Under the pieces are notes generated by a model that worked only from the letters and a program-made list of their open reading frames with translations, ran no database searches and was not told where the DNA came from. Shown piece after piece: positions 4,367-61,094 of a stretch of DNA of 64,000 nucleotides. Source of the stretch: an uncultured Gammaproteobacteria bacterium (GTDB lineage: Bacteria > Patescibacteriota > Microgenomatia > Woykebacterales > RBG-16-39-9b); the NCBI GenBank assembly GCA_965231125.1, contig OZ246414.1:17739-81738 (forward strand), in the 5' to 3' direction. The number at the start of each line of letters is the position of its first letter. The stretch's first letter is position 1. The position numbers were made by a program, and so were the translations under genes.

Positions 4367-5503
4367 TTAGCCTGTCGCCCAACAGTAGCTGTCCGCCCCG
4401 TTTAGTGGAGGCGAGGTCGTCCTGGGGCCCATGATACAGTTAAGCACGACAGGGTAGTGCCTCAAGGCGACACCGCTGACACTGAAGACGCCAATCTGCC
4501 CGTTACTCTTGGCGCTCACCTCTTTGTGTCCCGGTATTCTGGTGTAAGCAGGAACGCCGTCTTGGCTTTCCAAACCGTAGAGACCGATCGAACTGAAAGG
4601 CCGATCGGAGCAGTCGTGATTGACTGTCACTCCATCGTAGAAGTTGCTGTCCGGACCATCGAAGTAGTCCCAACGACAGTTCATCTTGTACGAAAGCAAC
4701 GTTACTTCCGCCCAGGTAACATTCCAACAGTAGCCGCCAAAAGGTGTGCACACCCGAGTGACGAAAGGCCAGACGATTTTGTACTCCGCGGTGCCGGCGG
4801 CACTATACCAAGCCCCTGGGTCCTCCGGCGGCGGCCCACAGCTTGTGCAGATCGACGCTGCTTCGCCATACTGGCTCCAGCTAACGACCTGAACATCGTT
4901 GATTTGGCCGGAGGCGTTTCGGTAGAGGACGCAGCCGGTGAACGATGGGTCAACGCTGGCAGCTTCTGCAACTGAGTTGTTGCAGGTTTTCAGCACGTCT
5001 ATTTGGATACGGACCGGCTGGCAACCGTGGTTGTACTGTTGGCCCATCAACACCAAGTCCTGGACGTTGATCCTACCGTCAGGTGGGCCAAGGTTCCAAG
5101 GGTTCGGGCCAAGCGGGGTCCGGTCGTACTCGGTCGAGTAACCAGACTGGCCTTGGTACTGCCCGAAGTGATAAACGACAGTAAGGATGTCCGCCACAGT
5201 GTTCTTGCCGCTGTGCGTCGGGTTCCACCAGTCCCAAGGATTTGTCGGGTCTCGACGGCCGCCCTCCTTTTGTTTCGGACCCAGTTCAAGCCGGTCTGGA
5301 CAACCATCGCCATCCGTATCCGGCGCCGTGTACTCAATGGTTGACGGGCCAGTATAGGTTGAGACAGACGGAGTTGGTGGGCTGAAATCGCTTGTCGGGG
5401 TTGACTCGGTTGTTGGTGTCGGTGTTTCTGCTTGAACCCCATTGGTGCCTGCGAGCCCTGCTATCATCAAGATAGCAAGCAGTAGGGTAATACGAAGTCG
5501 CAT
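4367..5503 (-). CDS. secreted Cys-rich protein with dockerin-like / DxDxDG calcium-binding repeats
   Basis: N-terminal signal peptide MRLRITLLLAILMIAGLAGTNGVQA. Contains DTDGDGCPD and DGRINVQDLVLMGQQY dockerin-like half-repeats, and many Cys. Confidence 0.6.
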   Translation of the reverse strand: MRLRITLLLAILMIAGLAGTNGVQAETPTPTTESTPTSDFSPPTPSVSTYTGPSTIEYTAPDTDGDGCPDRLELGPKQKEGGRRDPTNPWDWWNPTHSGKNTVADILTVVYHFGQYQGQSGYSTEYDRTPLGPNPWNLGPPDGRINVQDLVLMGQQYNHGCQPVRIQIDVLKTCNNSVAEAASVDPSFTGCVLYRNASGQINDVQVVSWSQYGEAASICTSCGPPPEDPGAWYSAAGTAEYKIVWPFVTRVCTPFGGYCWNVTWAEVTLLSYKMNCRWDYFDGPDSNFYDGVTVNHDCSDRPFSSIGLYGLESQDGVPAYTRIPGHKEVSAKSNGQIGVFSVSGVALRHYPVVLNCIMGPRTTSPPLNGADSYCWATG

Positions 5504-6348: not shown

Positions 6349-6480
6349 GCTTTAGTGTTATACACGCAAGCTTCTTTAGACTTTAGAGCGTAGCTCGCAA
6401 GTCTCGAAGAACTTTAGTGCGTCAGCACGCAAGTCTTGGGGAGCTTTAGCGCGTTAGCGCGCAAATCTCGGAGAGATTTA
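6349..6480. repeat. tandem array of 4-5 degenerate ~31-nt units, each CTTTAG + short hairpin + (GC)AAGTCTYG
   Basis: Unit hairpins are GTGT/ACAC, GAGC/GCTC, GTGC/GCAC and GCGCG/CGCGC. The sequences differ but the pairing is preserved. It lies in the divergent region between the secreted-protein gene and clpB. Confidence 0.6.
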
Positions 6481-6654
6481 TAGCACTTTTTACACCATTT
6501 GTCAAACTTAGAATAAAAAATTATCGGTTTTGTATGAAAAATTAGAAAAAATTTATCCACTCCTATAGTTTCCCCTGGAAATAAATCTATAGGTTGGGGC
6601 ACTTTTACATTTTGCCAACTTGTTCATTCTGTAGGAAATTTTAGCAGAAGGGTA

Positions 6655-19871: not shown

Positions 19872-19883
19872 AAGTTAGTAATA

Positions 19884-19947
19884 GGATCCTCCGTAACCAA
19901 ATCCAAGTGATTTGGGTACTCTCGGATCCTGCGTCTTTCAGACTAAA
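19884..19947. repeat. dispersed intergenic element R1, copy 1 (modules A TCCGTAACCAAATCCAAGTGATT, B GGGTACTCTCG, C CTGCGTCTTTCAGACTA)
   Basis: Module A is identical over 23 nt to 52926..52948. The module C hairpin GTCT/AGAC is replaced by GTCC/GGAC in copy 2. Confidence 0.5.
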
Positions 19948-19962
19948 GTAAAACGGCCGACT

Positions 19963-28230: not shown

Positions 28231-28306
28231 GGGCCAGTAGCTCAGCGGTTAGAGCACCACTCTTATAAAGTGGGGGTCCTTGGTTCGAATCCAAGCTGGC
28301 CCACCA
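28231..28306 (+). tRNA. tRNA-Ile with UAU anticodon, CCA encoded
   Basis: GGGCCAG-TA-GCTC-AGCGGTTA-GAGC-A-CCACT-CTTATAA-AGTGG-GGGTC-CTTGG-TTCGAAT-CCAAG-CTGGCCC-A-CCA. Fully canonical cloverleaf. Confidence 0.85.
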
Positions 28307-28371
28307 TTAGGTCTTAATTGACTTGATTACTGTGGCGTTTCTCGGCTTGCGTCCCCTAAAAGCGAGGTTAA

Positions 28372-28398
28372 AAGTGGGGGTCCTTGGTTCGAATCCAT
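28372..28398 (+). repeat. exact 27-nt duplicate of the tRNA-Ile 3' portion (anticodon-stem 3' strand through T-loop), 65 nt downstream of the gene
   Basis: AAAGTGGGGGTCCTTGGTTCGAATCCA is identical to 28268..28294. After CCA it diverges (TCCGAGCTCG). Confidence 0.6.
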
Positions 28399-31909: not shown

Positions 31910-33157
31910 TTAACTAGAGATGAGTTTGTTTAGATTAAAATTTAAGTCTCTCAAGTCTTCCGTACTAGCGGTAATTTTAACACGATTTTTGATTAGTTCT
32001 GAAATCGGAGCTCTATCCCCCGGTAGATTAATTAAACTGGCGCCAACGAGACGATCACCACGAATGTGTAAACGACCCAGCTTTCCTTCATCAACTGAAC
32101 CGCGCTCGATTAACATTGTTTCTGAATCGGCTGCGGAATCTCCCATAAAGGTAAAGGTGCCATCGAAAATCGAAATTGTGTAGGTAGACACGGTGATAAA
32201 TTTTTCCCGATCTGGATTGTCCCAACCCGCAACCATATTTTGCCCGACTGTTTTACCCTGCGCGCCTGCATTTGCCCAGTTTCCCATTTGGTGGTTTTTA
32301 TCAAAGAGGGCATCGTAAAATTCAGCAATGTCCCCTGCCGCCCAAACATCTTTAGTTTCTGTTTCTAAGTATTCGTTGGTAACAACACCTTTATTAATTT
32401 TTAGCCCTGAATCTTTTAAATAACCCAAGTCCATATGAATTCCGATACCAACTCCAGCAATTTCCGCCGGAATTTCTTTCCCTTTTTCTAGTTTTACTGA
32501 TTGCAAATCGGTCTCGCCAACAAACTCGACAACTTGATCTTCGGCGATGATGTCGATGCCATGGTCCTGCAGGATTTTATTTATTAGGCGGCCACTGCCT
32601 TCCCCAACAACCTGGCTCCAAAAATACGGTTCGCGAACAATACAAGTGGTTCTTATTCCCGCTTTAACGAAACTCTGGGCATATTCAATGCCGATGAAAC
32701 CGCCACCGACAACAACCCCAGTTTTAGCTTTCGCCATTTGCTCCTTAACTTCTTTGACATCGGCAATTGCCCGTAAGTAAGTTACCCCTTTTAAATCAGC
32801 ACCGGGAACTTCCGGACGATTGACTTTGCCGCCGGAAGCAATTAATAATTTACTGTACTCTATTTCTTCTTTACTCTGCAATGTAACCAGTTTACTCTGA
32901 GTATTAATCTTTTCCACTCTTAAATTCTTTAAAAGTTCGATATTTTTTTCTTCATAATCTTGTTGGTGGCGTACGTAAAGCCGTTCATAGGGTATTTGAC
33001 CACGTAAATATTGGGGAAGCATAACTCGAGAATAAAGAAGCTCTGGTTCTTCGGTAACTATAACTATTGATCCTGAAAGATCGTTTATACGGATAAATTC
33101 CGCCGCCGTGGTGCCAGCGATTCCCCCGCCAACAATCAAATAGTCTTTTTTTGTCAT
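31910..33157 (-). CDS. FAD/NAD(P)-binding pyridine nucleotide-disulfide oxidoreductase family protein (ferredoxin/rubredoxin-reductase-like)
   Basis: LIVGGGIAGTTAAEFIR and a second GGGFIGIE nucleotide-binding motif. Confidence 0.75.
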   Translation of the reverse strand: MTKKDYLIVGGGIAGTTAAEFIRINDLSGSIVIVTEEPELLYSRVMLPQYLRGQIPYERLYVRHQQDYEEKNIELLKNLRVEKINTQSKLVTLQSKEEIEYSKLLIASGGKVNRPEVPGADLKGVTYLRAIADVKEVKEQMAKAKTGVVVGGGFIGIEYAQSFVKAGIRTTCIVREPYFWSQVVGEGSGRLINKILQDHGIDIIAEDQVVEFVGETDLQSVKLEKGKEIPAEIAGVGIGIHMDLGYLKDSGLKINKGVVTNEYLETETKDVWAAGDIAEFYDALFDKNHQMGNWANAGAQGKTVGQNMVAGWDNPDREKFITVSTYTISIFDGTFTFMGDSAADSETMLIERGSVDEGKLGRLHIRGDRLVGASLINLPGDRAPISELIKNRVKITASTEDLRDLNFNLNKLISS

Positions 33158-33267
33158 ATCAAAAAAATACTGCGACCACTTCGTGGTCTAAGTCAACTTT
33201 TCTCATATAACTGTTCTTACACCACTTAATTGTAGCAGAAATGTTGTTCTAGCTGGCGGAGGATTGA

Positions 33268-34282: not shown

Positions 34283-34714
34283 TTATCTTTCAACTTTTAC
34301 TTCCGCTTTAATTAGAGCGTCCTTTAAAACATTTAAACTTAAGAGTGTACAACCGAGTCTGGCTGGTGATGGGTTAATTCCCAACAACCTAAGTATATCA
34401 CCCGTCTCTACCTTCCGGGCTTCTGCTAGAGATTTCCCTTCGATATAACTTGCTAATAGAGAGGCTGATGCTTGGGAAATCGCGCACCCTGTCCCGGAAA
34501 AAACCGCCTTTTTAATTATGTTCTCTGAATTCTTTAGCCCACGAAGTGGTCGCAAAGCGCGAAGCGATTTTATTCTTAATTGCAATTTAATTTCGTCTCC
34601 ACAAAGCTGATTTACTAGCCTAGCCTCTAAATCTGGGTTGGAAATTTCACCCCGGTTTTTGGGGTTTCGCGCTACTTCTAGAATTGTTTGTCGGTAGAGT
34701 TGATCTTCGATCAT
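34283..34714 (-). CDS. sufU: SufU/IscU-like Fe-S scaffold/sulfur-transfer protein
   Basis: The conserved Cys-containing motifs LCGD and GCAIS. Confidence 0.8.
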   Translation of the reverse strand: MIEDQLYRQTILEVARNPKNRGEISNPDLEARLVNQLCGDEIKLQLRIKSLRALRPLRGLKNSENIIKKAVFSGTGCAISQASASLLASYIEGKSLAEARKVETGDILRLLGINPSPARLGCTLLSLNVLKDALIKAEVKVER

Positions 34715-44729: not shown

Positions 44730-44872
44730 GTTGCACCTCCTATGCGCTAGCTGTTATCGGATTTTCCGATAAACTAGCTCTATATAATAGCAGATTTGTG
44801 GGAAAAAGTCAAACTATAGGGCTTTCTTTACCAAGAAAGCCCTGCGAACTTCGTTCTAAAGACGCTCTTAGA

Positions 44873-48331: not shown

Positions 48332-48727
48332 CTAAACGACTCTGTAAAGGGCTTGTGTTTCGATTGGCACCGCAACACCGACCTGTAGCGCAATGCCCCC
48401 GACCATCAAACCTTCGACCGTCGGAACGATCTCTAGTCGGGCATGATCTCCCCGCTGAATGCGCAGTATCTCACGGGCGGCGCCGACGTGATCTGCCTCT
48501 GCGATGGACATGCGCATATGGTAGACGTCCACCGGGGTGGATATACTCCTAAAAAGGTGTCTGCGGTCGAGGGTTAGATCTCTCACCAAAGAGACTAGCT
48601 TAAGCCCTCCTTCACCGTAGTGAAATGAAAGAACCTCCCTGCGTTCGCCAGCGTGATCTGCCTCCTCGATGATTGCTGGATTCATCGGCCCAACCAGAAG
48701 CTTGTCGAGACTAACTGGTGTTTGCAT
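48332..48727 (-). CDS. hypothetical protein with internal duplicated IxEADHxG..RE motif, GC-rich
   Basis: IIEEADHAGERREV and IAEADHVGAAREIL. Confidence 0.4.
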   Translation of the reverse strand: MQTPVSLDKLLVGPMNPAIIEEADHAGERREVLSFHYGEGGLKLVSLVRDLTLDRRHLFRSISTPVDVYHMRMSIAEADHVGAAREILRIQRGDHARLEIVPTVEGLMVGGIALQVGVAVPIETQALYRVV

Positions 48728-48791
48728 GACATCCCTCCTTCTGCAGATTTTTAAGGGACTATATCAAAAATAAACCTAAATGTCAAACTAT

Positions 48792-48884
48792 AGGGCGCTC
48801 GTAGCTTATGCCTTTTCGCGCTACTCAAAGCCAGCTACTGCGCGTCCTGCGCTAGGCGTCTTAACGCCTAGCTAAGTGTACATG
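48792..48884. repeat. dispersed ~93-nt structured element R2, copy 1
   Basis: About 88% identical to 60978..61071. It has an outer helix GTAGCT/AGCTAC and a terminal 8-bp hairpin GCTAGGCG-TCTTAA-CGCCTAGC. Confidence 0.6.
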
Positions 48885-49067
48885 TTAAGTATTAGACAAT
48901 CAGGCGCACTTGACTAGTTAAGCTTTTAACCGCCTTACGAGATGCCACCACTATCTAATTGAAGGTGGGATTAAGCTAGTGACCTTGTTGTCATCCTGAA
49001 CTTGATTCAGGATCTAGATGCTGAAATAAATTCAGCATGGCATCGGGCAATCGATACTTCGAATATT

Positions 49068-51098
49068 TCAGCCAGGGCCAGCGTGGCGCCACCTTTTTTG
49101 TAAAAGGTGACTAATAACAATCAAAAAAGAAGCTATCGAAACTAGATAAAGAACCTTTAACCAAACTGGTTCTTTAAATTCCAGATCCACTTGTCCATCT
49201 GCAAAAACTAGCATTAGGTTTGGCGCAGCCCGGTAAATCGGTACGTTTTTACCTGCGGACGTGGCTTTCCACCACGGAAAGTAAGAAAACTTCACCAGGA
49301 CTGGTTGAGGGTGTTTGGAGTCTATTTTTAACTTAATCCTAGACCAATCTTTATTGTGATCGACTATGGCCACTTTAGTTTTTGGGTTAAAATCTTTTGG
49401 ATCAAAATTAGCAACTTGCACTCCACTTCCCGGCTCAAACGGCAGACTAGCCCAGGCGTCTTTTTGGGCCCACCAACTTTCGACTTTTTTCTCAAAATTT
49501 CCACCCACTGGAATTGGGTTAAGGCGAGAAACTTCCACCAAACTCCCGCTGCCCACTTGTTCGACCGTATAGTTTTTAGACTCTCCTTGGGCTTGCCATT
49601 TTCCCACATCTGCCCCAATTGCCAGTTTGTCTAGATTAAGCACGTACTTTATGCCAAAAAGGGCGATGGCGGTTTGGATATTTTTCTCACTAACAAATTT
49701 TGTTTCGGTAAAAGTCCCTTCCCCTTCTGGGTATTTATTCGGATGAAGTGAACGGATTAAACTCCCCAAGTACGAACCGTTAGGGGTAGAATCAGTAAAA
49801 AGTCCGTAGGCCCAAGGATTGCTTTGGGGGTCTTGCATAACTAGATTTGTTTGAGCGGAATATAGTAGTGGTGCCGCGTCTGTCCGCCGGAATCCCTCAA
49901 TGAACCTTCCGCCAAGTTTTGATTGACCCACAAGGGTTGAACCAACATCGGCGATAACCGGGTTTTTTAAGATTAGGTAGGCAGCTAACAAAAGAAACAA
50001 AACTAAATTTATCCATTTAAAATCAACCTTTTCCAGAATCTTCATCTTAACCGTGGATAAAACTTCTGCCAAACTTAAAATCAAAGCAAGATACGCATAA
50101 GGTTGGAAGCGGTAAATATGCAGTGGATAAAGAAGGTTAAAAAGCGCGGAACCCGAAAAGTTTCTAATTAACAGGCTATCTAAAACAGCCAAAGTTAAAA
50201 GTACAAACGAAAAAGCTGAAAGAGCAAAAATTTCTGTCGACCGTCTTTTCCAACTGAATAAGCACAAACCCAAAACGATAAAACCTAAAATCACGTTCGT
50301 CAAAAAATACGAGGAAAGGTGCACGGATACAGAGGTAAGGTGAAGGTAAAGCACAAATGGCACCCAGAAAAAAGAAGTTAGTAAAGCGGATACCCCAACC
50401 AAGGCGGCTAGATTTCTACCTTTTAATTTTCCTCCCTTGAAAAGAACCGCCGAATACACCAGTAGATACAGTGCCCCCGCAACTACCGCTACTAAGTGAG
50501 TCAATATCAAGACCGCAAAAATTAAGGATGCCGCCAGGAATTTCCCTTTTTTAAACTCTCCGTGTAGTACACTGATAAATAAAAGGAAAATCGGTGTTGA
50601 GAAAAAATCTGGTAAAAGACCAATTTGGAAAAGCCCCCGGAAACCGGCTCCTAAAAAATTTGGTAGCACTGCTAGAAAAATCAGAACTAAAATTGTAGTC
50701 GGCAACCGGTAGTTGGTATTTTGGATGGTGCTCTTTACGGCAAAATAAGCAGCAAACGGAGTTGCTAAGATCGCTAAAGAAATTAGCAATTTTATGGAAG
50801 TGTCGATACTGAATAAAAATGACAAAGTCGCACTAAGCCAGTGGAATAACGAAGGGTAAAAGATTCCTTGCGGAAAACCCGCGAGAAAAAACGGATTCCA
50901 CCCCGACAAGCCCGGCCAAAGGAAAGTTTTTAAATACCAAACTAAACTAACGTGCCCCGGCGCGTCATAAATTTCTAAGAAGTCCGTTTTCCATAAGGGG
51001 GCCACTAGCAAAACAAATAACAAGGCTGATAAACCAACCAATATTTCTTGATCTATAAATAAATCAATAAGCTTTTGGAGAAAATTATTACCTTTCAT
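49068..51098 (-). CDS. large polytopic membrane protein with C-terminal extracytoplasmic domain (possible GT-C/YfhO-like glycosyltransferase)
   Basis: About 12 TM helices in the first 400 aa and a ~250-aa soluble tail. It is translationally coupled (ATGA) to femAB upstream. Confidence 0.45.
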   Translation of the reverse strand: MKGNNFLQKLIDLFIDQEILVGLSALLFVLLVAPLWKTDFLEIYDAPGHVSLVWYLKTFLWPGLSGWNPFFLAGFPQGIFYPSLFHWLSATLSFLFSIDTSIKLLISLAILATPFAAYFAVKSTIQNTNYRLPTTILVLIFLAVLPNFLGAGFRGLFQIGLLPDFFSTPIFLLFISVLHGEFKKGKFLAASLIFAVLILTHLVAVVAGALYLLVYSAVLFKGGKLKGRNLAALVGVSALLTSFFWVPFVLYLHLTSVSVHLSSYFLTNVILGFIVLGLCLFSWKRRSTEIFALSAFSFVLLTLAVLDSLLIRNFSGSALFNLLYPLHIYRFQPYAYLALILSLAEVLSTVKMKILEKVDFKWINLVLFLLLAAYLILKNPVIADVGSTLVGQSKLGGRFIEGFRRTDAAPLLYSAQTNLVMQDPQSNPWAYGLFTDSTPNGSYLGSLIRSLHPNKYPEGEGTFTETKFVSEKNIQTAIALFGIKYVLNLDKLAIGADVGKWQAQGESKNYTVEQVGSGSLVEVSRLNPIPVGGNFEKKVESWWAQKDAWASLPFEPGSGVQVANFDPKDFNPKTKVAIVDHNKDWSRIKLKIDSKHPQPVLVKFSYFPWWKATSAGKNVPIYRAAPNLMLVFADGQVDLEFKEPVWLKVLYLVSIASFLIVISHLLQKRWRHAGPG

Positions 51099-52123
51099 AG
51101 CATTCTTAAAATCTTACGGACCGGTTTTCTTATCACCTCAACAAATTTGGCCAAAATGTATTGGTTAGATGTTGGGTAGTCAAAAACTGGCTCGTACGAG
51201 ACTCTCTCCCCGCCAAAACTTATTTTAAAAGCCGTAACTCCAGCCCACGGATGGTTTTGAGAAGACCCCTCCGGCGCCACTCCCCAAAAGTCAAAATATT
51301 TAAAGCCTCGCCTTTTACCTTCCAAAATAGTCTTCCAAACTAATAAGTAAGAGGCTCGCATCTTCGATTGAGAGGTGGTTGAAGCAGCGTGTAAATAAGT
51401 CGCTGTATCGCCGTAAAAAATTACTAGTGAGGCGGCTAGTGGCTGCTTATCAAACTCGGCTACAAAAATTTCCATAAGGCCCTCTTTGTTCAAAGTCTCG
51501 TACTGTTTACGATAATAGGCAGAATGAGCGTCTTGGGTGAAGTGATGTCTTTTAGCAGTCTCCGCGAGCAAAGTCTCGAAAATTTTTAAATCTTCCAAGC
51601 CCCCGATCCGCACCTTTACTCCTCTTCTCTCCACCATCCGTACATTATAACGGGTAGAATCATTCATGGCTGAGAGTAATTCTTCTTCGCTTTTTGAAAG
51701 GTCGATAATAGCAGTGCACTCTGGTTGGGTGAAGAGCCGGGTTTTTCTAAAACCTGAGTTAATTAACAGACTGGCCTCATCTTCTGCAATAACACGCGGC
51801 TCGAGCCGCACAAAATCTAAGCTTTGCTCTTTTGCAATCTTAAAAAGATACCTCGTCAATTCTCCGACCACTTCTTTATTCCATTTTTTAAACACCGGTC
51901 CAGCCGGTATATAAAGATAAGAGGCGAACTTCGACTTAACTTGGTAGGCGCTACAAACCCCGATTAATTTATCCGAATCAAAAATTCCGGCCTGGTAGCT
52001 TTTATTTCCGATTTTTTCTTGAAAGCTGCCCCAAGAAAGGCTTTGCAAAAAAGGTGTGTGCGGAACTTCTCTTAGAAATTCGGCTAGAGACCCTGGCCCT
52101 ATTTCTTCAATAGTAAGATTCAT
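51095..52123 (-). CDS. FemAB-family peptidoglycan bridge aminoacyltransferase
   Basis: N-terminal FLQSLSWGSFQEK and the GNAT-like duplicated fold of the FemX/FemAB family. Confidence 0.75.
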   Translation of the reverse strand: MNLTIEEIGPGSLAEFLREVPHTPFLQSLSWGSFQEKIGNKSYQAGIFDSDKLIGVCSAYQVKSKFASYLYIPAGPVFKKWNKEVVGELTRYLFKIAKEQSLDFVRLEPRVIAEDEASLLINSGFRKTRLFTQPECTAIIDLSKSEEELLSAMNDSTRYNVRMVERRGVKVRIGGLEDLKIFETLLAETAKRHHFTQDAHSAYYRKQYETLNKEGLMEIFVAEFDKQPLAASLVIFYGDTATYLHAASTTSQSKMRASYLLVWKTILEGKRRGFKYFDFWGVAPEGSSQNHPWAGVTAFKISFGGERVSYEPVFDYPTSNQYILAKFVEVIRKPVRKILRML

Positions 52124-52226
52124 TAACTCGTTTAAGGTACCTTAAGTGGGAATAAAAATCAATGGATTGAAGATCGCATTTGCAATTCGTCGGCTCTTGT
52201 GGTAAATTGCGCCTACCAAGCCTGGC

Positions 52227-52916
52227 TTGGGAACTTGCCAAATAGAAATTCGGGCAATGAGCAAGCTAACCGAAGTCTTCGAAAAACACGGCAGTTTGAT
52301 TAAGGCCAAAAAAGGCAGGATACTTTTTGGTGTTGACGATCCCCCAACAAAAGTTTATTTAGTTAAAGAAGGTGCCATAAAAATTTACCGTTACACTGAA
52401 GACGGAAAAGAAGTCATGCTTCACATTCACGGGCCCAGAGAGCTTATTACCATCAGTCCAATTTTTAAAGACATGGATCACGTAGTTTATGCCGAGAGTA
52501 TGGTGGAAACCGATCTTTACTGGATTCCAGTTCCTCAATTCCGGGAGATTATAAAAGAAGACCCAGAGATTTTAATGGATCTAGGCCGGGCTCTAGCCAA
52601 CAACTGGGACGAGGTTGAGGAAAAAATTGAAGCCTTTGTCACTCATGATTCTCTTGGACGTCTAGCCTACATAATTCTTCAACTCACTGATAAATACGGG
52701 GCGGGCGAAGCTGGGAAAAAACGACTTCCTTTTCCTCTGACTCACCAAGAACTAGCAAACCTAACGGGGATGTTTCGCGAGACGGTCAGTATTTCCATAC
52801 AAGAACTAAAAAAATCCGGGATTATTTCAATCGACAAACATAATGTAACTGTGGAAGATCGAGACCGTCTCGAAGAGTGCGCCCGGACTGGTCGTAGCGC
52901 CATCGGCAACAACTAG
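52227..52916 (+). CDS. Crp/Fnr-family transcriptional regulator
   Basis: cNMP-binding beta-roll, then the HTH ELANLTGMFRETVSISIQELKK. The actual start may be the internal Met at ~52260. Confidence 0.8.
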   Translation: MGTCQIEIRAMSKLTEVFEKHGSLIKAKKGRILFGVDDPPTKVYLVKEGAIKIYRYTEDGKEVMLHIHGPRELITISPIFKDMDHVVYAESMVETDLYWIPVPQFREIIKEDPEILMDLGRALANNWDEVEEKIEAFVTHDSLGRLAYIILQLTDKYGAGEAGKKRLPFPLTHQELANLTGMFRETVSISIQELKKSGIISIDKHNVTVEDRDRLEECARTGRSAIGNN

Positions 52917-53016
52917 ATAGATCGCTCCGTAACCAAATCCAAGTGATTAAGATCGCTAAAGCGTTCTGCGTCCTTCGGACTAGGGTACTCTCGCGCTCTG
53001 CGACCGCTCTGCGGTC
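52917..53016. repeat. dispersed intergenic element R1, copy 2 (modules A, C, B rearranged relative to copy 1)
   Basis: TCCGTAACCAAATCCAAGTGATT is identical. Hairpin GTCC-ttcg-GGAC replaces GTCT-ttca-AGAC. The 7-nt direct repeat AGATCGC flanks module A. Confidence 0.5.
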
Positions 53017-53529
53017 TATTGTAGCCTAAATTACAATTCGCAAGTAATTTTCCTCACCAACCAAAAGTAATTTCTCTCACTGATATTTGGTCGGAGTTCC
53101 TTTAAATTAAGGATGAAAGGTACTCCGGTCCCTTAGGGGGCTGGAGAAGGAGAAGAGGGTTAGTGAGTTTGCCGATAGGGGGTAGGGACCGGGAGCTGCC
53201 GAGCCCAAAGAGGCAGCACACACAAATCTAAGGGCGGAGGGTAAGTCACCGGGAAAGTACAATGTACCAACTACTCCGTTGTAAACCCGCTAACACCTCT
53301 TCACCAGAGAGACGCCGTCCAACAGGACAGAAAGGAAGACGAAAATTCCATGCTGTCGACTAACAATCGACACAAAGACGAGCCGGCGTATAACAAGACG
53401 CACTCGTCGTAGAGCGGCTGAACTGTTTGTTCCTAGGCAAAGGAACAAATAGTGAAGCCGCTCTCTGTCGTTTTAAGCGAGCCCTCGGAGATTTACTTTA
53501 ACTTGGCTACCAGTTAAAATAATTCCCAA
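53017..53529. ncRNA. GC-rich ORF-free region with dense nested hairpins: candidate structured non-coding RNA, family and strand unresolved
   Basis: No ORF of 60 aa or more in any frame. Helices include GAGCGGCT..TTTGTTCC-N8-GGAACAAA..AGCCGCTC, GACGAG-N20-CTCGTC, GTCGA-N7-TCGAC, GGTCCCT-N57-AGGGACC and GCTGCC-N12-GGCAGC. Confidence 0.3.
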
Positions 53530-53826
53530 GTGAAAATTCAGGAGATCAGAAAACTACTGAAAGAAAGCCAATACTCCGTAAGTACTCACGCTTTTATCGA
53601 ATCCTTTGCAGATGGTTTCAGTATTAAAGACATTCTTAGAGCCCTTAACACAGGCGATATAATTGAAGAGTATAAAGATAGAAACCGACTGCTTATTTAT
53701 GCTAAACTTGGGACAAATTCAATTCACGTGGTAGTTGATTATTCTAGTGTGAACTACCTTTGGATAGTAACAGTTTATAAGCCCGACCCGAAAGAATGGG
53801 TTGATGGTAAAATCAGGAGGCAATGA
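53530..53826 (+). CDS. DUF4258-family putative toxin
   Basis: 98 aa. C-terminal WIVTVYKPDPKEW matches the family. It has a 4-nt ATGA overlap with the downstream zinc-finger gene. Confidence 0.6.
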   Translation: MKIQEIRKLLKESQYSVSTHAFIESFADGFSIKDILRALNTGDIIEEYKDRNRLLIYAKLGTNSIHVVVDYSSVNYLWIVTVYKPDPKEWVDGKIRRQ

Positions 53827-54059
53827 TGACAAAATTTGCATGTCCAAACTGCGGAAGTAAAGTAAATATAAGTGAAACAAACCTTACCCTGAAGAGAGGG
53901 GAATTTTCTGCTGAATTTAAAAATATTCCTGTGCAAAAATGTCCAAACTGCGGAGAAGTTTATATTCCAGGGAAAATAGCTGAATCTTTAAGTAGTTTGG
54001 CTGAAAAAGCTTTAAAAGAAGTTGCAAAAGCTAAAGAAAAACTTGTAGCCTCAGTGTAA
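53823..54059 (+). CDS. YgiT-type (MqsA-like) zinc-finger antitoxin-like protein
   Basis: CPNCG...CPNCGE zinc ribbon followed by a short helical tail. Confidence 0.65.
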   Translation: MMTKFACPNCGSKVNISETNLTLKRGEFSAEFKNIPVQKCPNCGEVYIPGKIAESLSSLAEKALKEVAKAKEKLVASV

Positions 54060-54241
54060 AAGAAAAACGATCCTGAGCATAGTCGAATGGATCGTTTCTC
54101 CTCCTAAGAAAACTACTAAGCTTGTCGAAGTAATTTGCTTAGGGTTTCCAGGTGCAGTGTTTTCCGTTCAGCATTTAGCTTACTTGTACTCTCCGCACCT
54201 GGTTTCACCCGGGCTGTTAGGCCTGGTTGTTGAGTCGAAGT

Positions 54242-54520
54242 TTAGGTCGCCACGGGCTGATGGCGGCGAGCGTACTTGCCAGCGGCCAAGGTAAGGAGCT
54301 CAATTTCCTGCTCCACATCGTTGGGAAGACCGAGAATGGCAGGCACTTTCCGCTCTTTCATAATCGCCAGCTTTACCGCTGATGAGGCGAGCTTCCTGGC
54401 TAAATCGGCGAACTTTTCCGGTGCTGTCCCCTTTCCCTGCTCGGCCTCCACGCGCATCCGAATGCTGTCTTGGACTCGCAGAAAGGCTTCGTCCCACCAT
54501 TGATCATAGTTGACCTGCAT
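54242..54520 (-). CDS. hypothetical protein (92 aa), GC-rich, third gene of a 3-gene small operon
   Basis: Strong RBS AAGGAGGAGAGGAG. Confidence 0.45.
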   Translation of the reverse strand: MQVNYDQWWDEAFLRVQDSIRMRVEAEQGKGTAPEKFADLARKLASSAVKLAIMKERKVPAILGLPNDVEQEIELLTLAAGKYARRHQPVAT

Positions 54521-54547
54521 GGTAACTCCTCTCCTCCTTACGTTGTC

Positions 54548-54778
54548 TCAGCCGACCGTTACTGTTTCCCCGTTCAACATCCGATGGGCTTTGTCGTAGT
54601 TTTCCTCGTTCGTCAGGTTGCCGATGTTTTCTCGAGTGATCTGGAAGCAATTATCTTCCCCGCACTCTGGGCAAAGGACGAGATCTTCTCCCGCAAGCCC
54701 ATCAAAGTCCTCGGGTCTTCCTACGAACCCACACCCACCGTATGTCGTTGAACAGATGAGTACGGTTTGTCCTGGCAT
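54548..54778 (-). CDS. hypothetical zinc-ribbon protein (76 aa), GC-rich
   Basis: RBS AAAGGAGGAG. Cys pairs CSTTYGGCG...CPECGEDNC. Confidence 0.45.
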   Translation of the reverse strand: MPGQTVLICSTTYGGCGFVGRPEDFDGLAGEDLVLCPECGEDNCFQITRENIGNLTNEENYDKAHRMLNGETVTVG

Positions 54779-54803
54779 GACTCCTCCTTTCGAGTTTATC
54801 TTG

Positions 54804-55025
54804 TCAAGCTCGACTTCGTGATCGACGATGATAGCGCGCCAATCTACTCGCTACTTCCCGAGCAGACTCTTCCCCAAGGTTCTTTGCCTCCGGGGAAGTA
54901 CTCATTAGTTGCTTTCGGACCCGCTCCGCTGCATCGGCTTGATCTGTGCTGTTCCTTGCTAGCCTACGAATCCTCGAATCGTTCTCGAACCTGTGGAATA
55001 GTGCCTGTTTGTTGTCAGTCCACAC
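54804..55025 (-). CDS. hypothetical basic protein (73 aa; GTG start), GC-rich
   Basis: RBS AAAGGAAGGG. Confidence 0.4.
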   Translation of the reverse strand: MWTDNKQALFHRFENDSRIRRLARNSTDQADAAERVRKQLMSTSPEAKNLGEESAREVASRLARYHRRSRSRA

Positions 55026-55138
55026 TTGATTCCCTTCCTTTCTTCAGTTAGGTGCGAGTTCAAATGTACAACATACTTATTTTCAAAAACTAACAAATTA
55101 TATCACACTATGGGACTCAAGTCAAGTTCTGGTAGTCG

Positions 55139-57829
55139 TCAGTTGGTTTCGATTACGGGAGCAAATTTGTCTAAGAGGCCGTCGAAGAACTTAAAGAGTA
55201 CCAGCAGCCCTACGCTCACAAAAATTATGTACAGCCAATCCCCGGCGTCAATCGGAGAGAGACCAAATAAATTAGCGAGAAGCGGAGTATAAACTACAAT
55301 CAACTGCAGCGCTACCGAGCTGACAACGGCTACTATTAATAAAATATTATCTCTCCAAGCAATTTTATAGTCGGCTCGGATATTTACCAGACGGATAATT
55401 TCAAAGATAACTATCGCTGTAAAAACGGCCGCTCTTGCTTCATTCACACCTTCCGGCAAGTTTGCAAAGAATAGGGCCAAAATTGCCACGGTAAGAGTGG
55501 TGGCAAAGGCGGCTATTTCCCACCAGACGCGAGAGTTAATAATGTCTCCTTGAAATTTTTTAGGAGAAAATTTTAAAATTCCTTTTTCGGCCGGGTCTAG
55601 CCCCAAAGCAATTGCCGGCAGACCGTCCGTCACCACGTTTATCCACAAAAGCATGACGGCGGTGAGCAGGACATCTTTAAAAATTAACAGTCCGAAGAAG
55701 ACCACTAAAACTTCACCGACATTGCAAGAAAGTAAGTAGTCGACAAATTTACGAATGTTGTCAAAAATTCCTCTTCCTTCCTCAATTGCCGCCACAATGG
55801 TTTTAAATTGATCATCCAGCAAAACTATGTCGGCGGATTCTTTGGCAACGTCTGTACCGGTAATTCCCATCGCGATGCCAATGTCCGCTTTCTTTAAAGC
55901 GGGTGCATCATTCACCCCGTCACCCGTCATGGCCACTAAATGTCCTTTCTTTTTTAAAGCCTCAACAATCTTAAATTTGTGGATGGGGTTTACCCGCGCG
56001 TAAATATTTGTATCTTCAACTCTTTTTGAAAACTCACTCTCCGATAATTTTTCCAGATCATCCCCGGTCAAAAGGGCGCCTTCGACTCCGATTTCGACAG
56101 CGACGGCTTTAGCTGTCGCCGGTTGATCTCCCGTAATCATAATTACCCGAATACCACTGGCCTGGCACTGGGAAATTAAATCTTGAACTTCTTTTCGAGG
56201 AGGGTCCATCATTCCCTGAAGACCAATAAAGGTTAGATCCTCTTCCACTTTGTCCTTTTCTAACTTTTCGATTTCTTTGTAGGCAAAACCCAAAACCCGC
56301 AAAGACGCGGCCGCCATTTTTGAGTTTTCAGATAAAATTTCGCTCTTTTCTTCTTTTGTTAAGGAAACTTCCTTACCATCCTTGATTACCTTAGTGCACG
56401 TATTTAAAACTGCCTCCGGCGCCCCCTTTGTGTAGATAATCTTTTTCCCATCTTCGGAAACAACAACGCTCATCATTTTTCTTTCCGAACTAAACGGCTC
56501 CTCGTGAAGTCTTGGGCCGGATTCTTTAAAGCGGGCTTTATGGGAAGCAACAATTAAAGCGCCCTCGGTAGGGTCGCCAGTAATTTTCCCCTCTTTTGAG
56601 TTAAACGTTGCGTTGTTGCAAGCAAGACCGGCTTTAAGAATTAATGAGAGCTCTTCTGTTTCTACTTTTTTACCGTCTTTAAGAAACGCCCCGTCCAAAT
56701 TGTAGCCCTGGCCGGTAACCGTGTAGGAGGCGCGGTCAACATAAATTTGTCGCACTGTCATCTCGCCGGCAGTTAAAGTGCCGGTTTTATCTGTGCAGAT
56801 TACATCTACGGACCCGAGAGTTTCCATCGAGGCGAGTCTCCGAACCAAGGCGTTGCGGCGAAGCATTCGCTGCGTTCCAAAAGCTAAAGAAACCGTCACC
56901 ACCGCCGGCAAACCCTCCGGAATCGCGGCTACTGCCAAGGCTATCGAAGCTATGAAAGAACTTAGCAGTCTTTGCAGAGGGTCCAGGTGAGCAAAATCCC
57001 GGGCAAAGAAGAAGATAAAGACAAAAACGAAAGCACAAGCAGCCGTGGTGCCATAACCAAGAACTCTACCAAGCTTGTCCAGACGTTTTTGAACCGGGGT
57101 TTTTTCCGGCTTAGTTTCCGCGACAAAAGAGGCAATTTTTCCAATCTCGGTTCTATCTCCGGTAGAAAAAACCACGCCAACCCCCCGACCACTGGCTACC
57201 ACAGTACCAGAGAAAAGAACGTTTTTTTGATCGGCGGTCTGAAGATTTCCAGAAAGTGGGTCTGAAGTTTTTGTAATGGAGTTTGATTCTCCAGTAAGAG
57301 ACGCCTCGTTTGTTTGGAGGTTGTAATCCTCAATTAAGCGAGTATCAGCCGGGACTTTTTCCCCTTCCTCTAAAATTACAATATCTCCCGGGATAAGATT
57401 ACTAACGTCCACCTCTTCCTTTCTACCGTCCCGCAAAACTTTTGCTTTAAACGCTAAAAGTTTTTTTAACTCCTCAATTGCTTTTTCCGCCCGATATTCC
57501 TGGAGAAAACCCAATATCGCGATCAGGGCGACAATTGCCAAAATTAAAGAGCCTTCAATTAAATCCGAGCTTTCTTTTCCACCAAAAAAATAAACAAAGA
57601 AAGTTAGAACAGCCGCAATAAGTAAAATTATTGTTAATATATTTTGGAACTGCCGAATAAAAATCTGAAAGGCGGAAATCTTTTTCTTTTCTGTCAGTTT
57701 GTTTGGGCCGATCTTCCCTAAACGTTTTTCAGCTTCTTGAGGGGACAGGCCTTTTTCGCTTGTTGCCAGTTTAGCAAAAAGTTCGCCGGTACTTAGACTA
57801 TAAATTGGTTTCTCCGCGGCAGACATCAT
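55139..57829 (-). CDS. P-type cation-transporting ATPase (type II, Ca2+-ATPase-like)
   Basis: DKTGTLT phosphorylation motif, TGDQ, and the [20 protein letters not shown] hinge. 896 aa with 10 TM helices. Confidence 0.9.
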
Positions 57830-57953
57830 TAATCAAGGATAAAACAAATCTTTAACGATACGCAAGCAAAGCAATCATCGGGGAAAACCCAAAAACTAAA
57901 AAAATTCGATGCTATAATAATAGTTATCTTTAGGCTTTCAGCTACAAACTGCC

Positions 57954-60515
57954 ATGTATTCCGTCGATAAACCTTGGAATCTAGACGAAAAAAAACTTTT
58001 AAACGCCCTGCAGACCTCGCCTTCTGGTCTTAGCAACAAAGAGGTAGCAGAACGTCTTGCCCGGATTGGGCCAAACCGCCTTGCAGTTGATAAGTCTAGA
58101 AACCCATTCTCGATTTTTTTATCCCAATTTAAAAATCCCTTAGTTATCATCTTAATTGTGGCTAGTGCCACCAGTTTAGTAATCGGGGACAAGTTTGACG
58201 CTACTATAATTTTAATAATCCTTTCAGTTAACTCCCTTATCGGTTTTATCCAAGAATACCGTTCTGAAAAGGCGGTCGAGGCTTTGAGAAAAAGATTGAG
58301 TCTACAGGCCCGGGTAATTAGAGCGGGGAAAGAATTGCTGCTGTCGGCCTCAGAACTTGTACCGGGAGATATTGTGAAAATTTCCCAAGGCAATATTGTT
58401 CCCGCGGACATCCGCCTAACCGCTGCAAAAAACTTATCCATTGATGAATCTTTAGTGACCGGAGAAAGTTTCCCGGTTGAAAAAGGGGACACGCCACTGT
58501 CCCTTAAAAACCCAATACCTCAAGACCTCAAAAATCTAGCCTTCATGGGAACAAATGTAATTGCCGGCAGTGCCCTTGGGCTCGTGTACGCGACAGGTGC
58601 CACTACAGAGTTTGGTAAAACCGCAAAAAGTCTTGAAGGAGTCGAAAGAGAAACAGAATTCCAGACAGGCGTCCGAAAATTCGGTAACTTTCTTGCCGTC
58701 TTAACCATAATTTTGGTCACCTTTATTTTCATCGTCAATGTAGTCTTGAAACCATTCCTGGGTCAAAGTATTAGCCTCCTGCAGGCCTTGCTTTTTTCCC
58801 TCGCTCTTGCCGTCGGCATAACTCCAGAACTTCTACCTTTTATAATCACTCTTAACCTTTCTAAAGCGGCTTTGGAAATGTCAAAAAAGAAAGTGCTGGT
58901 GAAAAGACTTATTGCTGTTGAAGATATTGGAAATGCCGACATTCTTTGTTCCGATAAAACCGGCACTTTAACGGCTGGCAAAATATTTTTAGAAAACTAC
59001 CTGAACTTTGAAGGTAAGACAGATCCAAAAATTTTACTCTACGGGCTACTATCTTCGGATGAGACCCGATCCTCGATTAACCCTCTGGATAAAGCAATTC
59101 GTGAATTCCCCGGAGTAAAAGAAATCAAAGATCAGGGGGATGCTTTCAGCAAAGTAGACGAACTTGCATTCGATTTTGAACGGAAAAGAAACAGCGTCTT
59201 GACGAAAAAGGGTGGCGATTTTTTAATCGTCTCTAAAGGAGCCTCGGAACAAATTCTCCCGCTTTGCAGCCAAGTGGTAATCGACGGCCAAACTAGCCTC
59301 CTTTTGGAAGAAACAAGACGAACCCTAAGGCAGAAATATGTTCAGCTTAGTAGCCAGGGTTACCGTCTCTTGGCAGTCGCCTTCAAAGAGAGCGCCCGCA
59401 AAAATAAACTTGAGGTTAAAGATGAACAAAACCTCACTTTTTTAGGGTTTCTAGTTTTTTCCGATCGACCCAAGGAAACGGCCGCAAAGACTATTTCTGA
59501 TCTCGAGGCTTTAAATGTTCAGATAAAAATTCTCACCGGGGACAACGAATATGTCGCCAGACACATTTGCCAGGCGGTTGGCGTGGAAGTGAAAAACGTT
59601 ATCACCGGAGAATCTATTGATAGCTTTGACGATGCTGAACTGGCAAATAGGGCAGTAGAGACGACAATTTTCGCGAGAATCACCCCAAACCATAAACTGC
59701 GGATTATCAAAGCTTTAAGAAGTCTCGGGCACACGGTGGCTTTCCTGGGTGATGGTGCTAACGATGCCCCGGCCCTAGAAACCGCCGATGTCGGGATTTC
59801 GGTCGACACGGCCTTGGACGTGGCCAAAGAAGCGGCCGACATTATTCTCCTCAACAAAAGCTTGGAGATTTTGGTTGAGGCAGTGAAAGACGGCCGGCGC
59901 ACCTTCGGCAACACAATGAAGTATATTTATTCCACTTCTAGTTCAAACTTTGGCAATATTTTTAGTTTGGCCGGGGCCAGTTTACTACTCCCTTTTATTC
60001 CGCTACTTCCTTCGCAGATCATATTGCTGAACTTTGTAACGGACATTCCCTATCTCGCGATAGCTACGGATAATGTAGATGACGAGTATTTAAAAAAGCC
60101 CAAACATTGGAATACTGGGGCGATTAGCCGCTTTATGATACCCTTCGGCTTGATTAGTTCCTTATTTGATTTTTCAACTTTCTTTTTGCTCCTTTACATG
60201 AGCCGGGCTTTATCGGACCGGATTGAAATTTTTAGGTCGGGTTGGTTTTTGGAATCCTTAGTTACTGAAATTATCATCGTTTATCTTATCCGCACTTCTA
60301 GGAATTTCTGGCAAAGTCGACCGAGCGCTTTGCTTATCTTTTTAGGAGCAGTCTCGGTAGTTCTCGGAGTAATATTAATCTACTCGCCGGCAGCTGCCTT
60401 TTTTGGATTCGGCTCCTTACCGGCAAAAATTCTAGAATTAATTGTCGTGTTATTAGTTGCCTATGGAATTTTGGTCGAGGTTGGGAAGAAGATCTATTAT
60501 CGAATCAATACCTAA
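57954..60515 (+). CDS. P-type ATPase, MgtA-like (type IIIB) by inference
   Basis: CSDKTGTLT, TGDN and GDGANDAPALETADVGISV motifs. 853 aa. It is divergent from the other ATPase. Confidence 0.85.
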   Translation: MYSVDKPWNLDEKKLLNALQTSPSGLSNKEVAERLARIGPNRLAVDKSRNPFSIFLSQFKNPLVIILIVASATSLVIGDKFDATIILIILSVNSLIGFIQEYRSEKAVEALRKRLSLQARVIRAGKELLLSASELVPGDIVKISQGNIVPADIRLTAAKNLSIDESLVTGESFPVEKGDTPLSLKNPIPQDLKNLAFMGTNVIAGSALGLVYATGATTEFGKTAKSLEGVERETEFQTGVRKFGNFLAVLTIILVTFIFIVNVVLKPFLGQSISLLQALLFSLALAVGITPELLPFIITLNLSKAALEMSKKKVLVKRLIAVEDIGNADILCSDKTGTLTAGKIFLENYLNFEGKTDPKILLYGLLSSDETRSSINPLDKAIREFPGVKEIKDQGDAFSKVDELAFDFERKRNSVLTKKGGDFLIVSKGASEQILPLCSQVVIDGQTSLLLEETRRTLRQKYVQLSSQGYRLLAVAFKESARKNKLEVKDEQNLTFLGFLVFSDRPKETAAKTISDLEALNVQIKILTGDNEYVARHICQAVGVEVKNVITGESIDSFDDAELANRAVETTIFARITPNHKLRIIKALRSLGHTVAFLGDGANDAPALETADVGISVDTALDVAKEAADIILLNKSLEILVEAVKDGRRTFGNTMKYIYSTSSSNFGNIFSLAGASLLLPFIPLLPSQIILLNFVTDIPYLAIATDNVDDEYLKKPKHWNTGAISRFMIPFGLISSLFDFSTFFLLLYMSRALSDRIEIFRSGWFLESLVTEIIIVYLIRTSRNFWQSRPSALLIFLGAVSVVLGVILIYSPAAAFFGFGSLPAKILELIVVLLVAYGILVEVGKKIYYRINT

Positions 60516-60606
60516 GTGAATAAACTTCCGTAAAGAAAAACCCCAGGGTTGTTACGGTGACTCGAATGAGTACCACAACCCTGAGGTCCTGCGATCAACT
60601 ACCCGG

Positions 60607-60873
60607 TTACATAGAGGCCGGTGCGAACGCTCTGTCCAGCCAGGTGACGACCTGCTGTTCATCACCTTCTTCGAACGAAATCCTCCGCTCGTTAAGCTCG
60701 AGCCGGAAGAGATCCTCACCAGAGTGATCTTCTGTCCAAACACTGGTGGTTCGCCCATTGGCACTGGTGTTGAAAGCAGACCGAGGACAACACATGCTGT
60801 CCTGATTCTGCCACACTGCCCCCATGGCCTCAAAGGCCTCTCCGAAGTCGAGTCCAAAATACCTCACTCTCAT
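60607..60873 (-). CDS. hypothetical protein (88 aa), GC-rich
   Basis: Complete ORF. The overlapping alternative frame at 60552..60857 is less protein-like. Confidence 0.4.
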   Translation of the reverse strand: MRVRYFGLDFGEAFEAMGAVWQNQDSMCCPRSAFNTSANGRTTSVWTEDHSGEDLFRLELNERRISFEEGDEQQVVTWLDRAFAPASM

Positions 60874-60977
60874 CCTCCTGTATTTTACTCACCTTATAGG
60901 TGGCAAGGTATTTTAAAACTTTTAGAACACTTTGCCAACTACAAAGCGAAGAAACTATAGCAGAAATGAAGGGGAAA

Positions 60978-61071
60978 GTCAATGCTATAAGCCGCTCGTA
61001 GCTTGTGCCTTCTCGTGCTACTCAAATCCAGCTACTGCGCGTCCTGCGCTAGGCGTCTTAACGCCTAGCTA
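60978..61071. repeat. dispersed ~94-nt structured element R2, copy 2
   Basis: See copy 1. The substitutions fall between the helices, and the terminal hairpin is identical. Confidence 0.6.
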
Positions 61072-61094
61072 GGGTTAAACGTCAAGCTTGGTGA

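Follow-up and report, generated by a model that had tools for sequence, protein, structure and literature searches.

Structured intergenic modules, many joined to promoters, recur in a lineage of Woykebacteria-like Patescibacteria

Bacteria of the candidate phyla radiation (CPR) have genomes of about 1 Mb, and their non-coding elements are little described, as far as could be found. The DNA analysed here is a stretch of 64,000 nucleotides from contig OZ246414.1 of assembly GCA_965231125.1 (hereafter, the window), which carries on its minus strand two copies, A and B, of an intergenic repeat termed R2. Copy A lies between the gene of a 676-aa membrane protein and two small orphan genes, while copy B begins 20 nt past the stop codon (61095) of a sodX-like gene and is followed by another orphan gene. 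Both copies therefore sit between consecutive minus-strand genes, as was stated in the initial annotation, which had been made from the letters of the sequence. Between them lie crp, femAB, the 676-aa gene and a DUF4258/YgiT pair. About 74 kb of this genome (the window and 9.6 kb past its right end) and about 110 kb of relatives were read. We report that R2 is a structured element supported by covariation, absent from Rfam, common to related Woykebacteria-like contigs and joined to consensus promoters.

The two copies had been annotated as direct repeats of about 93 nt, and they are indeed such repeats. Using blastn, copy A (48758-48874) and copy B (60954-61071) aligned over 118 nt at 86.4% identity, with a core (48796-48874 and 60993-61071) of 79 nt at 94.9% identity; a repeat finder run on the window returned the pair as 102 nt at 88%. 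They share an orientation and a stretch of 44 identical nt, and the window contains just two occurrences of the 24-nt hairpin GCGCTAGGCGTCTTAACGCCTAGC, against none expected from shuffling. The first bounds were too narrow: homology reaches about 35 nt further left and ends exactly at the -10 hexamer of a minus-strand promoter, which forms part of the repeat and had been overlooked. Folding with RNAfold recovered the helices originally described, namely a 9-bp terminal hairpin and a GTAGCT/AGCTAC helix with a GCGC extension (z of about -2.5 on either strand), which correspond to P0, P1 and P2 of the family fold given below and are backed by covariation. In agreement with the earlier view that these are not simple U-tract terminators, a terminator scan of both copies found none with a U-tract, the tails being AUAGUUUGAC and AUAGCAUUGA. 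All substitutions had been placed in unpaired regions; most do lie in loops, but some fall at helix positions of the covariation-supported model. One such change disrupts P3 in copy B, where a C-G pair becomes A.G, another turns a P1 G-C pair into G.U, and a third lies at the conserved P1 mismatch, which is A.C in copy A and A.G in copy B.

Copies A and B are each other's closest relatives. They have P2-P3 sequences in common that are without a match in the related contig L040, and their flanks are only about 60% identical, which marks them as recent paralogues or gene-conversion partners. Logan contigs of SRR6155503 match the window at 100% identity, and the JGI contig Ga0136847_10506507 matches it at 99.9%. 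The contigs of three sequencing runs all terminate inside copy B, as is expected at a repeat, and the element accounts for recurrent assembly breaks in this lineage whichever reading of it holds. Upstream of copy A, directly after the stop codon of the 676-aa gene, two tandem hairpins with similar stems (CATGCTGAA..TTCAGCATC and GATCCTGAA..TTCAGGATG) occupy 48985-49047, with no U-tract in either. An inverted repeat at 48584-48614/48960-48990 has no counterpart at copy B and was taken as chance.

The picture of a two-copy repeat did not hold, since covariance models found further copies in the window itself. A first nhmmer profile, built from copies A and B and the one in L040, detected divergent copies in the related contigs L038, L043 (three in tandem) and L044, and the covariance models (R1-R3) added L043 17524-17611 and L045 12974-13063, the last in a distant relative whose neighbouring protein is only 39% identical. 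In all, nhmmer and the three covariance models gave 13 significant copies in the window, L038, L040, L043, L044 and L045, the E-values being rough owing to a shortened calibration. Five related Patescibacteria contigs thus carry copies, and the homologues of the 676-aa membrane protein are labelled Candidatus Woykebacteria or Patescibacteria by their sources. The window holds at least eight loci in 64 kb, or about one per 8-10 kb. In L040, a 31-nt stretch identical to copy B (ACCCTAGCTAGGCGTTAAGACGCCTAGCGCA) lies at the orthologous spot downstream of sodX and is followed by an unrelated middle and then by a homologous promoter. Copies A and B are paralogues in a lineage-wide family of structured intergenic modules of Woykebacteria-like Patescibacteria.

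As controls, the covariance models were run on 415 kb of viral contigs chosen for containing the core 19-mer and, with filters off, on 93 kb of unrelated DNA carrying the exact P0 stem, with no hits in either set. No Rfam 15 family matched in a gathering-threshold scan of the window or in scans of four copies at E<=10, which returned only tRNAs and microRNA-type noise. Exact-stem scans (GCGCTAGGCG-N6-CGCCTAGC) of genome and metagenome contigs gave 30 loci, all attributable to chance and without flanking similarity, although this negative is weak because the collections contained neither the source contig nor that of L040. Two viral-contig scans and BLAST against phage genomes yielded nothing real, and the plus-strand open reading frame (ORF) that spans the element, searched against 1.8 billion representative proteins for copies miscalled as genes, had no hits. 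A loose regular expression for tag-hairpin-GCAAG matched 34 times in the window and 35 times in shuffles, no better than chance. Three candidate identities were rejected: a DNA uptake sequence, since the conserved 6-8-mers are not over-represented outside the elements; the template/variable repeat of a diversity-generating retroelement, since the positions at which A and B differ are not specific to adenine, the elements do not encode protein, and the vicinity of the two copies showed no reverse transcriptase; and the CIRCE, HAIR or CtsR operators, raised by the copies next to clpB-like and ftsH genes, since the sequences do not match and the arms covary.

Read on the sense strand, the module consists of an unpaired NTAG tag (mostly YTTAG), a P0 hairpin, a CGCARGA motif, a long P1-P2-P3 stem and a CUAU(AG) tail. 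P1 pairs AAGACNC with GNGUCUU around one conserved mismatch, P2 pairs GUACC with GGUUAC, P3 is variable, and the internal loop of the long stem is purine-rich and of about 4x3 nt. P0, a hairpin of 9-28 nt, falls into distinct types, among them GCTAGGCG-TTAAGA-CGCCTAGC and CCCAC-GAA-GTGGT, and cGAAg triloops are frequent in it. The tag is GTAG in L043-17524, L044 and L045, and CTTAG, CTTTAG, CCTAG or AATAG in other copies.

Minimum-free-energy folds of eight copies, each made independently, all gave this architecture, and RNAalifold returned the same helices from an unfitted MAFFT alignment, with 14 of 28 pairs compensatory. The unfitted alignment A4 was 96.9% paired and held 11 pairs with double changes, against 1-2 in controls in which the partners were slid. 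For A5 and A6, both fitted to the model and hence somewhat inflated in pairing, the values were 96.0% with double changes in 22 of 26 pairs (3-9 when slid) and, over 13 copies, 93.9% with 21 of 23 pairs compensatory (4-9 when slid); none of 500 shuffles reached the covariation score of A6. Compensatory changes above controls are what a structured RNA or single-stranded DNA motif presents. Confinement to this locus and a lack of structural conservation had been named beforehand as signs against the element; it is found well beyond the locus, and its structural conservation is clear.

As to the strand, the initial annotation had read the plus strand, while the evidence favours the minus (gene-sense) strand. 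There, G.U cells outnumber A.C cells by 12 to 3, the sense strand is the more stable in 10 of 14 copies, and nearly all clear copies are oriented like their flanking genes. Such evidence fits RNA or one strand of DNA and cannot tell the two apart.

Nine of the 14 copies, both R2 copies included, carry a promoter of the form TTGAC-17-TGnTAnnnT, 5-7 nt past the tail and always in the same register, predicted to be of the near-consensus extended -10 sigma-70 type. For six promoter-bearing copies the protein gene downstream could be identified, and in every case it is GC-rich (GC 0.49-0.60 against a background of 0.42-0.44) and has few or no family hits. The promoterless copies lie either between cistrons or where a transcription unit ends, namely in the tRNA-synthetase/ftsH gap, between sufC and the next ORF, after vanY, and in a GC-rich non-coding stretch facing crp. 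A second promoter, starting from CTTGAC 5' of P0, was considered and rejected, there being no usable -10 at 16-18 nt. The DNA and proteins downstream of copy A are unrelated to those downstream of copy B. Searches with the 131-aa and 86-aa cargo proteins found homologues in near-identical strains only, and the cargo genes had no hits in Pfam, PHROGs or NCBIfam. The terminator of the 86-aa gene (60593-60536, minus strand) begins with CGCAGGAC as R2 does, contains GGUAC..GUAAC and ends in U5, and a CCTTAG..GCAAGAC remnant follows the cargo of copy A.

Some further features of such genes and their leaders were observed. The 131-aa orphan has an internal duplication of about 55 aa (48481-48506 against 48646-48671, EEADHAGERREVL and AEADHVGAAREIL), which supports it as a real two-repeat protein. 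Three GC-rich (0.54) orphans of 73, 76 and 92 aa, all preceded by strong Shine-Dalgarno sequences, lie at 54242-55025 (minus strand) without an R2 element, behind a consensus promoter, TTGACT-17-TGaTATAAT, at about 55125-55097. In L040, a long hairpin (GAAGGCATCTTGTAACTGGT...ACCAGTTACCAGGTGCC) followed by a U-tract at 4395-4545, downstream of the module promoter and ahead of the first ORF, could be a small RNA (sRNA) or a leader. In the leader of the ClpB-like gene, an inverted repeat (CCTATAG-N18-CTATAGG, 6560-6600), downstream of an array of short family units, reuses the CTATAG motif of the tail.

Copies of the module tend to follow stop codons. Six begin 0-20 nt past a co-directional stop, namely those of sodX, PAP2, a 669-aa gene, Fer4, sufC and vanY, and for L043-17524 and L044 the stop codon itself supplies the TAG of the tag. 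The surroundings of copy A are syntenic: crp, femAB and the 676-aa gene or its counterpart (67x-aa), then a Pyr_redox gene and vanY, are conserved in the closer relatives. The block crp-femAB-67x-aa is found in L038, L040 and L042, femAB-67x-aa also in L043, L044 and L045, and the distant L045 keeps femAB-67x-aa-vanY. Two slots vary between relatives and hold different small GC-rich genes in each genome, for which family hits are few or absent. At the slot after sodX, where copy B lies, the element is present in the window and L040 and absent in L042; at the slot after the 67x-aa gene, where copy A lies, it is present in the window and L044 and absent in L038, L040 and L043. The latter slot holds small, near-bare sigma-70 region-4 (-35-binding) domain proteins in L038 (12102-12533) and L044 (10098-10553). 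Right after sodX, L040 (4011-4181, minus strand) and L042 (about 1065-1255, minus strand) carry an antisense Cys-rich gene, called as 56 aa in L040, which is absent from the window at the point where copy B starts. Coordinates of the modules and their cargo are collected in Table 1.

Table 1. Copies of the R2 family in the window, their parts and their cargo genes
Feature	Position	Strand	Support	Composition and context
R2 copy A, full module	48758..48876	-	covariance model, 91.5 bits	
Copy A, tag CTTAG	48876-48872	-		
Copy A, P0 hairpin	48872-48851	-		
Copy A, CGCAGGAC with P1 5' arm	48848-48842	-		
Copy A, P2/P3	48838-48801	-		
Copy A, P1 3' arm	48798-48792	-		
Copy A, tail ATAGT	48791-48787	-		
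Copy A, predicted promoter	48786-48758	-	11/12 matches	TTGACA-17-TGaTATAGT; -35 TTGACA 48786-48781, TGn plus -10 TATAGT 48766-48758
R2 copy B, full module	60954..61073	-	covariance model, 86.5 bits	
Copy B, tag CCTAG	61073-61069	-		
Copy B, P0 hairpin	61069-61048	-		
Copy B, P1 5' arm	61045-61039	-		
Copy B, P1 3' arm	60995-60989	-		
Copy B, tail	60988-60984	-		
Copy B, predicted promoter	60982-60954	-	10/12 matches	TTGACT-17-TGcTATAGT; -35 TTGACT 60982-60977, -10 TATAGT 60959-60954
R2-family copy without promoter	52913..53022	-	57.7 bits and 61.8 bits (two models)	at the end of a GC-rich gap of ~600 nt; directly adjoins the convergent crp stop codon; no downstream gene on its own strand
R2-family copy without promoter	19877..19949	-	51.6 bits	between a class-I tRNA synthetase gene (trpS/tyrS) and ftsH; ends 5 nt before the ftsH ATG
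Mini copy fused to TTGACT-17-TGcTATTAT	44784..44861	-	21.1 bits, E 0.018	CTTTAG, AAC-GAA-GTT hairpin, CGCAGGGC stem-loop, CCTATAGT tail; begins 11 nt past the stop codon of PAP2; a GC-rich 237-aa orphan lies downstream
Four mini units of ~31 nt in tandem (CTTTAG, short hairpin, GCAAG...)	6349..6485	+	47.6 bits	ends in TTATAGCAC and a weak promoter-like site, upstream of the ClpB-like gene
Marginal mini copy	33136..33194	-	E 0.06	CTTAG, ACCAC-GAA-GTGGT, CGCAG, A/U hairpin overlapping a start codon
Marginal mini copy	34531..34577	+	E 0.07	P0 type (CCCAC-GAA-GTGGT-CGCA) the same as in the copy of distant L045
Cargo of copy A: two orphan genes, 131 aa and 89 aa	48048..48727	-	strong Shine-Dalgarno sequence each	GC 0.52 against 0.44 for the window
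Cargo of copy B: 86/88-aa orphan gene and terminator 60593-60536	60536..60873	-	strong Shine-Dalgarno sequence	GC 0.54

Neither a convincing ORF nor an Rfam match was found in the GC-rich gap of about 600 nt at 52917-53529 that separates crp from the DUF4258/YgiT pair; its minus strand finishes with an R2-family copy and may encode an unknown non-coding RNA.

Among described systems, repetitive extragenic palindromic sequences (REPs) are small palindromes with an unpaired GTAG or CGTC tag at one end (PMC3733652). The R2 family resembles REPs and the bacterial interspersed mosaic elements built from them (PMC3733652), as well as REPINs (PMC3116915), in combining a small palindrome with four unpaired tag nucleotides at one of its ends, in being scattered through intergenic DNA, for the most part behind coding regions and between genes that are unidirectional or convergent, in being plausibly transcribed and active as RNA hairpins, and in having some types that cross species. 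An imperfect intergenic palindrome of 20-40 bp mostly downstream of genes, as in REPs, is present; many near-identical copies, often as inverted dimers, are not. Here the tag is NTAG, CGCARGA and a second, long interrupted stem always come after the palindrome and in its orientation, the stems covary rather than keep one sequence, every array consists of direct repeats, many copies have a promoter joined to them in register, and no REP-associated tyrosine transposase (RAYT) is annotated in the window from 38.4 to 64 kb or in the 9.6 kb beyond. Even so, of the three identities first proposed, namely an sRNA, a recombination site and a dispersed element like REPs or miniature inverted-repeat transposable elements (MITEs), the last is the closest, given the further copies in the window and in relatives. 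Of MITE features, no terminal inverted repeats were found at the unit ends, and a possible 9-nt flanking repeat (ACTTGACTT) occurs only in L040.

The Correia elements of Neisseria, together with ERIC and BOX, are likewise hairpin-folding intergenic repeats that carry promoters. RNase III cleaves the RNA hairpins of Correia elements, which also provide -35/-10 boxes. The R2 family differs from Correia elements in lacking terminal inverted repeats and TA duplications, and from all three in that its promoter lies outside the fold, at the 3' side, and in its CPR lineage. The intercistronic RNase III signals of phage T7 are stem-loops of about two helical turns with an asymmetric internal loop, and the upstream mRNA is left with a 3' hairpin that protects it. 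R2 shares with them an interrupted two-turn stem between cistrons, sometimes by promoters; cleavage here is hypothetical, there is no sequence relationship, and the context is chromosomal and cellular. Intrinsic terminators offer another likeness, a stable hairpin right after stop codons, and the related stem at 60593-60536 has a U-tract; most family copies present only the hairpin and not the direct U-tract that belongs with a G+C-rich terminator hairpin, and their conserved unpaired motifs and internal loop are unnecessary for termination. Finally, a near-identical promoter segment upstream of non-homologous genes, as in putative mobile promoters (PMC3575422), is found here as 118 nt at 86% ending at the -10, with unrelated DNA downstream.

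We tentatively read the element as a REP-like module at the boundary of transcription units, in which a structure acting as an RNA 3' end or insulator is coupled to a promoter; judged from sequence, this seems plausible rather than probable. Its starting points are direct observations, namely the family, the fold, the strand bias, the post-stop position, the in-register promoter and the unrelated cargo, from which we infer action as RNA and the forming or insulating of a 3' end. Read-through RNA from the upstream gene would fold into P0 and P1-P3, and this fold, through weak termination, an RNase III-type cut at the internal loop or both, would end or process the upstream transcript at its 3' end, or protect that end. 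It might also shield the adjoining promoter, which would then start the next unit, here the GC-rich orphan genes. The post-stop positions, the copy that faces crp and the CGCAGGAC start shared with the terminator of the 86-aa gene support this reading. If it is right, a streamlined genome packs 3'-end formation and initiation into about 120 nt, and the element could serve as a marker of transcription-unit borders for annotating uncultured organisms. Several points weigh against it. Most copies lack a U-tract after the stem, so classical intrinsic termination is not demonstrated, and complete termination would do harm at those copies that lie within apparent operons (sufC-orf101, trpS/tyrS-ftsH). 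The P0 sequence is conserved far beyond what the fold needs, and the 31 nt shared with L040 are identical though the neighbouring protein is only about 58% identical. The frequent cGAAg loops of P0 are a hallmark of stable DNA mini-hairpins, and the tandem arrays and presence/absence at orthologous slots resemble mobility. The G.U/A.C count, too, is modest and was taken from alignments fitted to the sense-strand model.

These last points lead to the main rival, mobile DNA of the REP/REPIN or palindrome-associated transposable element type, which we regard as rather unlikely. The tag-hairpin (NTAG, P0, CGCA) and the long stem would then be single-stranded DNA structures recognised on the lagging-strand template by an HUH/Y1 transposase (RAYT or IS200-like), the promoter would be a passenger or preferred neighbour, and effects as RNA would be secondary. 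An unpaired NTAG 5' of a small palindrome, with GTAG in three copies, recalls the GTAG-tagged REPs (PMC3733652), and mobility also suits the P0 types common to distant genomes across genera, the recurring triloops, the arrays, the on-and-off occupancy of the two slots, the mutual closeness of A and B, the assembly breaks inside copy B and the ACTTGACTT repeat, which flanks the L040 core on both sides in the manner of a target-site duplication. REP families are, however, usually sequence-homogeneous, while the stems here differ yet compensate within one genome (L043a/b/c, and the copies of the window); inverted dimers are absent, no transposase, integrase or RAYT is annotated in the 38.4-64 kb part and the 9.6 kb beyond, the promoter register is fixed, and the promoter itself is homologous between copies. 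The excess of G.U over A.C, fitting RNA or one specific DNA strand, does not discriminate. A related and quite unlikely proposal is a CPR-specific gene-capture system, in which the folded tag-hairpin-stem would be a site of single-strand recombination or transposition, with foreign GC-rich orphans inserted at hot slots and expressed from the built-in promoter; functionally analogous to integron cassettes or phage morons, it would differ from them in site architecture and employ an unknown enzyme. Were the element mobile or recombinogenic DNA, it would offer symbionts a route to acquire and express foreign orphan genes.

More specifically, the module could be the 5' boundary of a small mobile cassette (structure, promoter, GC-rich orphans, terminator) inserted by site-specific recombination at a folded site in the manner of integron attC, which we hold to be distinctly improbable. 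As with attC, the fold is conserved more than the sequence and small, compositionally foreign orphans occupy variable slots; all six promoter-bearing copies with an identifiable gene precede GC-rich genes, which differ between relatives at the two slots, and CGCAGGAC recurs at the 3' end of the copy B cargo much as the CCTTAG..GCAAGAC remnant follows that of copy A. Against it, the attC core sites (R''/R', RYYYAAC...GTTRRRY) are not conserved across copies, no integrase is annotated nearby, a promoter is present, many copies flank ordinary core genes (ftsH, clpB-like, sufC, vanY) without a cassette, and GC-rich orphans also stand behind element-less promoters, at 54242-55025 and at slot A of L038 and L040. 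Very improbable is a free-standing plus-strand sRNA gene or a double-stranded operator palindrome for a transcription factor, in spite of the similar fold z-scores of A and B on both strands, a position upstream of a promoter and the nearby crp-family gene. The sRNA of about 90 nt first suggested would have no promoter upstream, while the promoter immediately downstream points away from it; there is no plus-strand promoter or terminator at either R2 copy, the G.U excess lies on the minus strand, and the plus-strand ORF has no called homologue in the protein search described above. No single DNA-binding protein would tolerate arms that covary among the copies of one genome, as an operator here would require, and promoterless copies exist. 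Least credible of all, and already contradicted, is the proposal that attL/attR-like direct repeats bound a 12-kb island. The direct orientation and the 44 identical nt suit it, but the interval contains the conserved core genes crp-femAB-676aa, and in L040 and L042 sodN-sodX lie 4-6 kb from that block on the same side. The interval is moreover not uniform in composition, has no annotated recombinase and no Pfam hit to one, and other copies of the element lie elsewhere in the window.

Two repeats apart from the R2 family were also recorded. An exact 27-nt copy, at 28371-28397, of 28267-28293, the T-arm/3' part of tRNA-Ile(TAT) (28231-28306), lies 104 nt downstream of the gene and may represent either a partial duplicate of the tRNA or what is left of an old att site. 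Past the right end of the window, contig L035 carries paralogous 90-aa genes of unknown function (7222-7568 and 8166-8511) that are 84% identical over 347 nt.

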